Positions 3,344 through 4,245 of a stretch of 64,000 nucleotides of DNA are shown here, in pieces. The DNA is from Candidatus Fraserbacteria bacterium (lineage in GTDB: Bacteria > Bipolaricaulota > Bipolaricaulia > RBG-16-55-9 > DRXL01): contig CAMTVK010000019.1 of NCBI GenBank assembly GCA_947085185.1, positions 13,892 to 77,891 of the forward strand, read 5' to 3'. The notes below the pieces were generated by a model. That model was given only the letters and a program-made list of their open reading frames with translations, was not told where the DNA came from and did not search any database. The position numbers and the translations under genes are program-made. The number at the start of each line of letters is the position of its first letter. Positions within the stretch are counted from its first letter, which is position 1.

Positions 3344-3446
3344 GCGTCAATTCGCGTTCAGTCCCGATGGGAAGCTGGTGGCCTCGGGCTCCGGTGATAA
3401 TACGATCAAGCTGTGGGATGTGAGCGATCTGGTGGGGAGGTGAGGG
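3344..3446 (+). pseudogene. WD40-repeat gene remnant (last repeat only)
   Basis: Translation ...[30 protein letters not shown] is a single WD40 blade with no upstream repeats. The same 3' end is duplicated at 4173-4230. Confidence 0.5.
3384..3444 (+). repeat. direct repeat copy 1 (40-bp perfect core 3405-3444; homology extends from 3384)
   Basis: atcaagctgtgggatgtgagcgatctggtggggaggtgag is identical to 4191-4230, and the upstream tcgggctcc is also shared. Confidence 0.9.
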
Positions 3447-3545
3447 GCAGGCAGCGCAGGCAGAAGACCAAAGCTAGGAATAGCTGTCAGCGAGCAAAAT
3501 GCCCACTTCGTCGGCTTAGGGTACAATACTTGAAGGTGGTCTAGC

Positions 3546-3776
3546 ATGGCGCAAATCGCTGAACGCATTGAAATCGATCCCCACATCCATCACGGCAAGC
3601 CGGTCATCGCAGGCACTCGGGTGCCGGTCCACATGGTACTAGGGCTCTTGGCTAACGGCGTGACTCCCGAAGAGATCATCCGAGATTACTACGATCACAT
3701 CACTAAAGAAGATATTCTCGCGTGCATTCGCTACGCGCAGGCCCTCGTGGAAGAGGAAGAAGTTCACGCCGTCTAG
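3546..3776 (+). CDS. DUF433 family protein (antitoxin-like)
   Basis: 76 aa: MAQIAERIEIDPHIHHGKPVIAGTRVPVHMVLGLLANGVTPEEIIRDY. GAAGGTGG ribosome-binding site upstream. Confidence 0.8.
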   Translation: MAQIAERIEIDPHIHHGKPVIAGTRVPVHMVLGLLANGVTPEEIIRDYYDHITKEDILACIRYAQALVEEEEVHAV

Positions 3777-3778
3777 CA

Positions 3779-4141
3779 ATGGCCCGCTTTTTAGCGGACG
3801 AGTGCACCTTCACTGCTACGGTCCGCCTCATGAGGGATTTGGGGTTTCAAGTGCAGCGCGTCCAGGAACTAAGCATGACTGGCGCGGCTGATATGGACGT
3901 CTTTCAGAAGGCCCAACAGCTGCAAGCAGTCCTCGTGACGAATGATCAAGGCTTTGGGGATGTGCGGACCTATCCACCTTCATCGCATCAAGGGGTAATC
4001 GTCTTGAAGATGGAGCCCGATCCTAAAAAGGTGCAAGCAGTCCACCGCGTGCTAAAGGAACTCCTGAAAAAGGAGCAACGATTTGAGCGGTGTCTTTTTG
4101 TGGTGGACACGAGTACATATCGCAAGCGAACAAAACCTTAA
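3779..4141 (+). CDS. DUF5615 (PIN-like) family protein (toxin-like)
   Basis: ATG lies 3 nt after the DUF433 stop. MARFLADECTFTATVRLMRDLGFQVQRVQEL...VLVTNDQGF has the PIN-like acidic pattern. Confidence 0.75.
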   Translation: MARFLADECTFTATVRLMRDLGFQVQRVQELSMTGAADMDVFQKAQQLQAVLVTNDQGFGDVRTYPPSSHQGVIVLKMEPDPKKVQAVHRVLKELLKKEQRFERCLFVVDTSTYRKRTKP

Positions 4142-4172
4142 CGAGCTTTTGCCGGAAGTGGCGCTTTTGGCT

Positions 4173-4230
4173 TCGGGCTCCTACAGAGAGATCAAGCTGT
4201 GGGATGTGAGCGATCTGGTGGGGAGGTGAG
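4173..4230 (+). repeat. direct repeat copy 2 (40-bp perfect core 4191-4230)
   Basis: Identical to 3405-3444. It encodes ...[12 protein letters not shown] again. Confidence 0.9.
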
Positions 4231-4245
4231 AGAGTAGGACAGTTA

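Follow-up and report, generated by a model that had tools for sequence, protein, structure and literature searches.

A toxin-antitoxin cassette between two copies of a WD40 gene end in a Candidatus Fraserbacteria contig

The pairing of DUF433 (COG2442) antitoxins with PIN-like toxins was predicted by Makarova et al. 2009 (PMC2701414), and for one such toxin-antitoxin (TA) system, VapBC10 of Synechocystis (ssr2962/slr1767), toxicity and neutralisation have been demonstrated (PMC3834315). COG4634 and PIN_10 have been listed as DUF433-associated potential toxins of a reduced, Mut7-C-like PIN branch, a group with a reduced fold and no solved structure (Matelska et al. 2017, PMC5499597). In a 64,000-nt stretch of Candidatus Fraserbacteria DNA (GenBank:CAMTVK010000019.1, positions 13,892 to 77,891; hereafter the window), we found a DUF433/DUF5615 TA pair lying between two perfect copies of a 41-nt direct repeat, R, which corresponds to the end of a WD40 gene. 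As in the PIN-COG2442 (VapBC-type) systems, e.g. VapBC10 and Rv2018/Rv2019 of M. tuberculosis, the DUF433 gene comes first in a compact bicistronic operon; the window toxin matches DUF5615, PIN_10 and Mut7-C, and its likeness to VapBC10 is one of family.

Restriction-modification (RM) complexes have been described to enter chromosomes by 'insertion with long target duplication' (Nobusato et al. 2000, as recounted by Furuta, Abe and Kobayashi 2010, NAR 38:2428, PMC2853133). The published cases, which lack mobility genes, include repeats of 44–47 bp, e.g. 47/47 in Thermus thermophilus, and such repeats have been proposed to allow amplification and release (PMC2853133). The window locus resembles this class in being a small addiction module that has neither transposase nor integrase and is flanked by >30-bp direct repeats of local chromosomal sequence. 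Among the features by which Furuta et al. recognise the class, repeats longer than 30 bp (41/41) and an insert of <20 kb devoid of transposase, integrase and prophage genes are present here, whereas a related genome with an empty single-copy site, the comparison that defines the class, is missing. Two further differences are that the module carries TA genes where the class carries RM genes, and that R on the cassette side adjoins another variant of the target gene than the resident one, an indication of recombination between two homologous gene ends and not of duplication of one.

Integron gene cassettes and TA-rich chromosomal integron arrays are comparable in that short, promoter-bearing TA cassettes lie between copies of a conserved sequence and vary in content among close strains. 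They differ from the window locus, where no intI is found in the neighbourhood and R is a non-palindromic, non-folding, protein-coding gene end present in 2 copies per locus. An integron gene cassette is not supported, in that R contains no attC-type hairpin and that no integrase domain occurs in the scanned neighbours or in the gene table of a sister strain. In Campbell-type integration, circular DNA enters by a single homologous crossover, which is also the route of excision and re-insertion of repeat-flanked segments. It predicts an insert between two direct copies, each a hybrid of resident and incoming flanks, as was observed here; the differences are that no circular intermediate was observed and that a 41-nt homology is very short.

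The repeat and its source

The two copies of R (GATCAAGCTGTGGGATGTGAGCGATCTGGTGGGGAGGTGAG; positions in Table 1) were detected by repeat search at a spacing of 786 nt, and a 40-mer search allowing up to 3 mismatches revealed only these 2 copies in the window (0 expected in 100 shuffles). The initial annotation of this DNA had described 40-bp perfect repeats; these were real, with a true length of 41 nt that includes one extra base on the left. It had further described homology for about 20 bp upstream across a small indel. Weaker homology and the indel were indeed seen upstream of R, but the region was ~40 nt long (3363–3403 versus 4152–4189), with the first 30 nt being 73% identical and followed by an unalignable 8–11-nt patch with a 3-nt length difference. 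Identity is accordingly distributed as a mosaic, 41/41 within R versus 73% directly upstream, and by our own arithmetic 41 matches in a row at 27% divergence have p = 0.73^41, ~2.5e-6. R has no dyad symmetry and does not form an imperfect palindrome, and the hairpin potential of R and its extended versions does not exceed that of shuffles (z = −0.66 to +0.34). No inverted repeats were found at the cassette ends, only internal, weak ones within 2600–5200, and no Rfam RNA family matched in 3100–4400.

A degenerate search of JGI metagenomes for DNA encoding the tail specified by R returned three contigs (L012, L013 and L014). L012 contained an intact multi-blade WD40 gene of at least 488 aa ending with the R-type tail, L013 contained a two-blade version of 142 aa ending with the same tail, and in L014, representing a different organism and context, the WD40 tail was followed directly by the next gene with an uninterrupted junction. 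The final codons, GTG GGG AGG TGA, include GGAGGTGA, which in the intact loci of L012 and L014 is situated just 5' of the ATG of the next gene and reads as the Shine-Dalgarno sequence of that gene. A protein search seeded with the L013 protein revealed a family of small membrane-anchored WD40 proteins (118–244 aa, 2–4 blades), in which the C-terminus ..IKLWD[VI]SDL[VL]GR was seen in 17 of the members listed. The tail (..SDLVGR and stop) occurs once per intact gene, at the C-terminus, and internal blades go on with ..LWDVATG. Since the tail is single and C-terminal, R represents a duplicated gene end, and internal WD-repeat homology, tried as the source of the repeat, is ruled out. An intact WD40 gene naturally holding both copies, which the initial annotation had named as the case that would speak against its reading, was likewise not what the relatives showed, as they carry the tail once.

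That the TA genes lie within a WD40 gene remnant was borne out by a Pfam WD40 match and by alignment to intact family members. Compared with the sister strain (contig L032, see below), which has TGTG and is in frame, the remnant on the left has suffered a 4-nt deletion (frameshift) between 3353 and 3354; because of this deletion and the lack of a credible N-terminus, it is taken to be a pseudogene. The blade variants next to the two copies of R differ, with GSGDNT left of copy A and GSYRE left of copy B. The intact family member P0121 ends with GSYKEIKLWDISDLVGR / ..LLASGSYKEIKLWDISDLVGR, and so has the variant found left of copy B, which is shorter by one residue; the right-hand fragment is not a product of random decay. 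As the two upstream pieces are different natural variants, the R copies derive from two distinct WD40 gene ends that share the last 41 nt.

The WD40 homologue search was uninformative on the taxonomy of the family; what it yielded were the C-termini and the GSYKE variant. Members of the family (L013 765–1193; P0099–P0203) have an N-terminus MLTIRLIGIGAAIAILLVAAG..., 2–4 near-identical 42-aa blades and the fixed tail ..DISDLVGR, and the variable number of blades implies frequent recombination among the 126-nt repeats. It was also noticed that two WD40 blades alone cannot make a propeller. Upstream of the WD40 remnant, window 3259–3287 (+) contains a strong sigma-70-like promoter match (TTGACT-17 nt-TACAAT, 10/12), from which read-through transcription into the cassette could occur. 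A large surface-protein gene in L012 had no homology to anything in the window.

Turnover in a sister strain and cassettes in other contigs

The locus is situated between a DUF2227 gene and an ABC-2 permease gene. The second member of the ABC-2 permease cluster was L032, a 33.9-kb ENA contig from a hot-spring enrichment culture (PRJEB24462; PMC5817080), and its flanks match window 1716–3383 at 97.8% and 4247–5962 at 97.9%, with cassettes between them that differ from those of the window. From left to right, the L032 interval contains 1) the WD40 remnant, in frame to ..SPDGKLLA, 2) a 5'-truncated DUF6883 gene fused to the remnant, plus DUF4926, 3) a blade piece of the GSYKE type that lacks 2 nt and, after it, a complete R without differences, 4) the 68-nt spacer and antitoxin gene known from the window, without the toxin gene and with the last 24 nt of a second R (..ALVEEEVSDLVGR and stop) in place of the antitoxin 3' end, and 5) a third DUF433/DUF5615 pair, 71% identical in nucleotide sequence to the first, before the permease gene. 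This third cassette lies on a 788-nt segment that replaces the 16-nt junction of the window, and a remnant of R to its right was not significant (score 18; 40/500 shuffles as high).

Alignment of the two strains revealed that window 3404–3759, comprising R, the spacer and 214 nt of the antitoxin gene, was identical to L032 in 356/356 positions, whereas the flanks had 37 and 36 differences (2.1–2.2%). Among 2,674 flank windows of 356 nt, none (0/2,674) was free of differences, the minimum being 1–3 and the mean ~7. The cassette block is therefore younger than the strain split, or was exchanged afterwards. The left edge of the identical block coincides with the left edge of R, and the blade variants further left differ. 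The right edge of R (..GGTGAG) abuts three different sequences, namely the TA spacer (both strains), the 16-nt flank (window) and the third cassette (L032). The recent mobile event that had been proposed from the window alone is thus supported by the other cassettes within 97.8%-identical flanks and by the shared 356-nt block with zero differences. The description of the region as otherwise housekeeping holds for the surrounding stretch, but not for the spot itself: the DUF2227-permease interval is a strain-variable TA hot spot punctuated by WD40 terminal-blade pieces.

The TA core was also found elsewhere. Its nucleotide homology is limited to ~3513/3555–4141, at 78–85% identity, and stops at the toxin stop codon; contigs L015, L016–L025, L026 and L027 contain it with all-different neighbours, and protein-level relatives occur in the unrelated contexts of L028 (Fraserbacteria) and L029–L031. 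The TA core is shown by these contexts to be mobile. In at least 7 other contexts it is present without R.

Flanking repeats were evaluated by aligning 300 nt upstream to 300 nt downstream for 12 independent cassettes, with 300 shuffles each. Significant direct repeats were detected for the window (z = 31), L012 (z = 11), L027 (z = 14.5; 34 nt, 88%) and L016 (z = 16), the result for L026b was marginal, and those for seven loci, namely the second pair of the window (pair b), L015, L026a, L028, L029 and L030/L031, were not significant. The repeat in L027 duplicates part of a reverse-strand gene. In L016, a target duplication was ruled out, as the repeat is a dispersed, REP-like 34-mer that occurs also elsewhere in those contigs and in L013, and the cassette there more plausibly landed between repeats by chance. 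The 34-mer (CCCTCTCCGCTTGCGGGGAGGGCCAGGGTGAGGT) has a hairpin core, is common to contigs of different metagenomes and is located at L016 4723–4756 and 5386–5419, flanking the cassette, near 9552–9600 in L018–L024 (near 5238–5271 in L024) and at L013 683–716. Repeat-flanked insertion is hence recurrent, not universal, and a rule that this TA family is always repeat-flanked is ruled out by the non-significant loci. In L028, it was noticed that the cassette end (~3364–3460) adjoins a putative tRNA-like gene on the opposite strand with the motif GGATTCGAACC.

In L012, a DUF433/DUF5615 pair (54%/39% identical) in opposite orientation lies between the WD40 stop codon and the next gene, within a junction duplication of ~170 nt and 61% identity (score 69 versus a null of 21.5 ± 3.3). 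Of the three contigs retrieved by the R-type tail, this one alone has the TA family at the tail, which suggests a real association of the WD40 gene end with the cassette family, three contigs being too small a sample for proof. The L012 DUF5615 gene (5680–6042) has an in-frame stop after codon 80 and the antitoxin gene is intact, in parallel with the toxin-only loss in L032.

Route of entry and alternatives

It is probable that a ~786-bp unit entered the chromosome by recombination through the conserved 41-nt WD40 gene end. Before the event, the site in the window lineage would have been remnant-GSGDNT-R-16 nt-permease, between the DUF2227 and ABC-2 permease genes, and the incoming unit would have comprised R, the spacer, the antitoxin and toxin genes, 10 nt and the GSYRE blade piece. 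The incoming DNA would have brought its own R, behind a piece of another WD40 terminal blade, from its previous location. Within R, a circle could recombine by a single crossover, or a linear form in the 'ends-in' configuration, and either would place the cassette between identical R copies. In the L032 lineage, the resident site would have been ..DUF4926-GSYKE-R-third cassette-permease; integration would give R-cassette-R in both lineages, after which L032 would have lost a stretch that begins at the 3' end of the antitoxin gene and reaches into the middle of the second R. The same gene end may have served as the joint for other cassettes, giving rise to a small strain-variable TA hot spot, and the flanking repeats would permit later excision, amplification or loss. 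We infer that the crossover was homologous (RecA-type) rather than site-specific and that a circular intermediate was involved. The shared breakpoint after ..GGTGAG needs no special enzyme, because homology of the WD40 paralogues ends there (stop codon + 1 nt). The initial annotation had left the choice between an insertion with target duplication and a recombination of WD-repeat units; recombination, between two distinct gene ends, is favoured over a simple target-site duplication, as only the last 41 nt are exactly duplicated and the blade fragments upstream are different natural variants.

Several points weigh against entry through R. An empty site (left flank, single R, right flank), as had been suggested for a check, was sought in related genomes and none was found, and the pre-insertion state is a reconstruction: a genome scan with the ABC-2 permease gave seven Bipolaricaulota-type loci of 59–67% identity that share the transporter pair only, and in the sole close relative, L032, the site is filled by other cassettes with two R copies of its own (one partial). 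Significant flanking repeats that are not REP-like occurred in only 3/12 independent loci, and repeat-flanked insertion is therefore not the sole way in which the cassettes move. The breakpoint common to three sequences at the right edge of R is also expected from a site-specific system, and the origin of the first R-TA-R unit is not covered by the model. A homology of 41 nt is close to the shortest at which RecA-dependent recombination is generally efficient, and the same limit may hold in this organism. With regard to the cargo, the AlphaFold model of the toxin (pLDDT 90.7, pTM 0.84), in which strands and helices alternate, had no significant PIN match by Foldseek against the PDB, the best being CheY-like receivers (E ≥ 0.018, TM 0.41–0.45); membership in the TA family is firm at the sequence level.

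R might also be the attachment-site core for a site-specific recombinase acting in trans (tyrosine/Xer-type or integron-like integrase), with a cassette array exchanged at R. This would be in line with the perfect conservation of R in four copies of two strains (41/41 in three of them, 24/24 for the partial copy) next to blades of 73–75% identity, with the three sequences at one right edge, with the left border of the 356-nt block at the left edge of R, with the related TA pair at the same gene end in the distant contig L012, and with a cassette that has no mobility gene of its own. We nevertheless regard it as unlikely. No recombinase, transposase or integrase was detected among the predicted genes Pfam-scanned within ~12 kb or in the 14-kb sister-strain locus, a scope that, in a 64-kb window, leaves room for an enzyme encoded at another place in the genome and acting in trans. 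R is unlike attC or dif-type sites in having neither dyad symmetry nor hairpin (z = −0.17 to +0.34), its end is simply where the homology of the WD40 paralogues stops, homology of lower identity continues beyond R, the length of the repeats varies (41 nt in the window, ~170 nt in L012, 34 nt in L027), and the TA core is found without R as described above. A doubtful proposition, somewhat more so than the attachment core, is that addiction cassettes (DUF433/DUF5615, DUF6883/DUF4926) have in R a dedicated docking site, where they are captured and exchanged via a trans recombinase or an efficient short-homology pathway; if true, it would be an integron-like platform without linked integrase, on a protein-coding gene end, in at least 2 distant hot-spring lineages.

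A one-step duplicative insertion, in which at least 41 nt of the WD40 tail was copied as a long target duplication and the right blade fragment is older and came attached, is improbable to about the same degree as the attachment core. A perfect repeat of >30 bp around an addiction module without mobility genes agrees with the operational criteria of Furuta et al. 2010 (PMC2853133), and analogous flanking duplications of local sequence are present in L027 and L012. However, the empty-site comparison is lacking, a homologous but different blade variant left of copy B is unexpected from pure duplication of a resident target, and a crossover within R accounts more simply for the sister strain, where the cassette stands behind another blade variant. 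This account overlaps mechanistically with recombination through R, and separating the two from sequence may not be possible. It is quite improbable that an old duplication of the WD40 gene end surrounds the TA genes and that recent short-tract gene conversion evened out the last 41 nt, with no recent insertion. The mosaic of 100% beside 73% would fit a conversion tract and L012 indicates that such duplications can be old (61% identity), but this account would leave unexplained both the 356/356 block against 2.2% flank divergence and the fact that in the sister strain the cassette follows another blade variant. An assembly artefact, i.e. a wrong join or a collapsed or expanded loop at the 41-nt repeat, is very improbable indeed, even though the contig is metagenome-derived and short-k Logan assemblies break at R. 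The ends of these assemblies fall exactly on the edges of the repeat (L003 begins at 3444 and L002 finishes at 4190), as is expected because 31-mer graphs break at a true 41-nt repeat, and both flank-R junctions were recovered at 100% identity in Logan assemblies of two other runs. In addition, the R-spacer-antitoxin junction and a blade-R junction recur in L032/L033, assembled independently from another sample, and ordinary reads are longer than a 41-nt repeat. By our own reasoning, given two edges into R and two out of it, no linear path other than the order in the window makes use of every edge.

Movement of chromosomal TA modules without mobility genes is poorly documented, and the locus provides a clean natural example, with three informative features: identical copies of a gene end, a different set of cassettes at the same joint in the sister strain, and a block younger than the genome around it. 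The pattern described for RM modules is thereby extended to TA modules, and the results suggest that conserved ends of multi-copy repeat-protein genes can serve as portable homology for cassette exchange. Within a stretch of a Bipolaricaulota-like genome that is housekeeping otherwise, window 3270–4246 is marked out as accessory DNA that varies between strains. The locus reveals neither a new protein family nor a new biochemical mechanism: the TA family is known and partly validated, the mode of insertion fits a known class, and what is new is the recent turnover at a conserved WD40 gene end. The mobile event is real and recent, and fairly ordinary.

The TA genes and the surroundings

The coordinates of the features are given in Table 1. 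The DUF433 and DUF5615 genes lie between the repeats, as had been annotated, and the 745-nt insert contains the TA genes only. The PF04255 match of the antitoxin spans profile positions 1–56 of 56, and comparison with the PDB gave 2GA1 (DUF433; E = 0.0067) and 5AF3 (VapBC49; E = 0.15). The toxin also matched Mut7-C and PIN_10 (PF18478, 26.2 bits, exactly at the cut-off), and no NCBIfam matches were obtained. The genes are co-oriented, antitoxin before toxin, with a gap of 2 nt, a layout that is the same in 12 related loci. Homology to the cassettes of L015, L026 and L027 begins in the conserved region upstream of the operon; a consensus promoter scan made no call at the TACAAT site there, and the -10 and Shine-Dalgarno motifs come from reading the sequence.

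Table 1. Features of the TA cassette and its borders in the window
Feature	Position	Strand	Basis or remark
WD40 pseudogene remnant, one blade	3270..3443 (start approximate)	+	Pfam WD40; tblastn to L012, L013, P0117
Repeat R, copy A	3404..3444	+	last 13 codons + stop of WD40 gene + 1 nt; holds GGAGGTGA
Spacer from R to TA core, 68 nt	3445..3512	+	100% in sister strain; absent from TA cassettes in other contexts
Conserved upstream region of TA operon	3513..3545	+	-10-like TACAAT (3522–3527), Shine-Dalgarno GAAGGTGG (3532–3539)
DUF433 (COG2442) antitoxin gene, 76 aa	3546..3776	+	Pfam PF04255, E=1.3e-23, 83 bits (cut-off 23.6)
DUF5615 (COG4634 / Mut7-C-like PIN) toxin gene, 120 aa	3779..4141	+	Pfam PF18480, E=1.2e-18, 67.4 bits (cut-off 23.8)
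Second WD40 terminal-blade fragment	4152..4189	+	..PEVALLASGSYRE.., short 'GSY[KR]E' variant as in intact P0121
Repeat R, copy B	4190..4230	+	41/41 nt identical to copy A
Junction, 16 nt	4231..4246	+	reaches stop codon of ABC-2 permease gene (4246–5079, minus strand)

A database search retrieved 81 relatives of the toxin at E ≤ 1e-5, those of 66–87% identity having widely different origins, among them Fraserbacteria and an archaeal Methanosuratincola metagenome-assembled genome (MAG), and no relatives were found in IMG/VR viral contigs or PLSDB plasmids. In an alignment of 52 sequences, D7, E8 and D38 of the toxin were invariant and D56, D61 and D110 were ≥90% conserved; following PMC5499597, these acidic residues would belong to the predicted nuclease site. 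The dN/dS values against homologues were 0.05–0.18 for the toxin and 0.008–0.05 for the antitoxin, indicating that both genes are under purifying selection. The pair appears to be a functional type II TA operon, with a DNA-binding DUF433/COG2442 antitoxin and a PIN-like DUF5615/COG4634 toxin. Growth arrest by DUF5615 and its neutralisation by DUF433 would be consistent with the purifying selection on both genes and with the loss of the toxin gene only, the antitoxin gene being kept, in the sister strain.

The neighbourhood contains genes for DUF2227, MTH865, thiolase, ABC transporter components, a cold-shock protein and an AAA ATPase, and the nearest tRNA gene, at 46241, is >42 kb away. A transposon or insertion sequence is not supported, as terminal inverted repeats and a transposase are lacking and the duplication is 41 nt long instead of 2–15 bp, and an integrase-mediated integrative element is not supported within the stretch covered, as no recombinase was found in the element or within ~12 kb and no tRNA gene lies close by. 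The AAA ATPase (591 aa; window 6470–8245) has proteasomal-ATPase OB domains (Prot_ATP_ID_OB_N/C) and an AAA domain and is Mpa/ARC-like, in a Bipolaricaulota-like genome. A second DUF433/DUF5615 pair is located at 8205–8884 (+), with an antitoxin 36% identical to the first and a toxin that has no BLASTP match to the first; its longest open reading frame (ORF) overlaps the end of the upstream AAA ATPase gene, and no repeats flank it.

In L032, position 12269–12526 (minus) is occupied by a chimeric 85-aa ORF in which the WD40 remnant is fused in frame to the C-terminal half of DUF6883, and the DUF4926 gene downstream makes this a second putative two-gene module, flanked by blade pieces that form a 21-nt direct repeat of 81% identity. 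The two strains differ also beyond the ABC transporter, where homology ends at window 5962 (L032 8617–9089 versus window 5823–6470): L032 contains there a ParE-type toxin with a small partner and GroES/GroEL, and the window contains the cold-shock protein and AAA ATPase genes.

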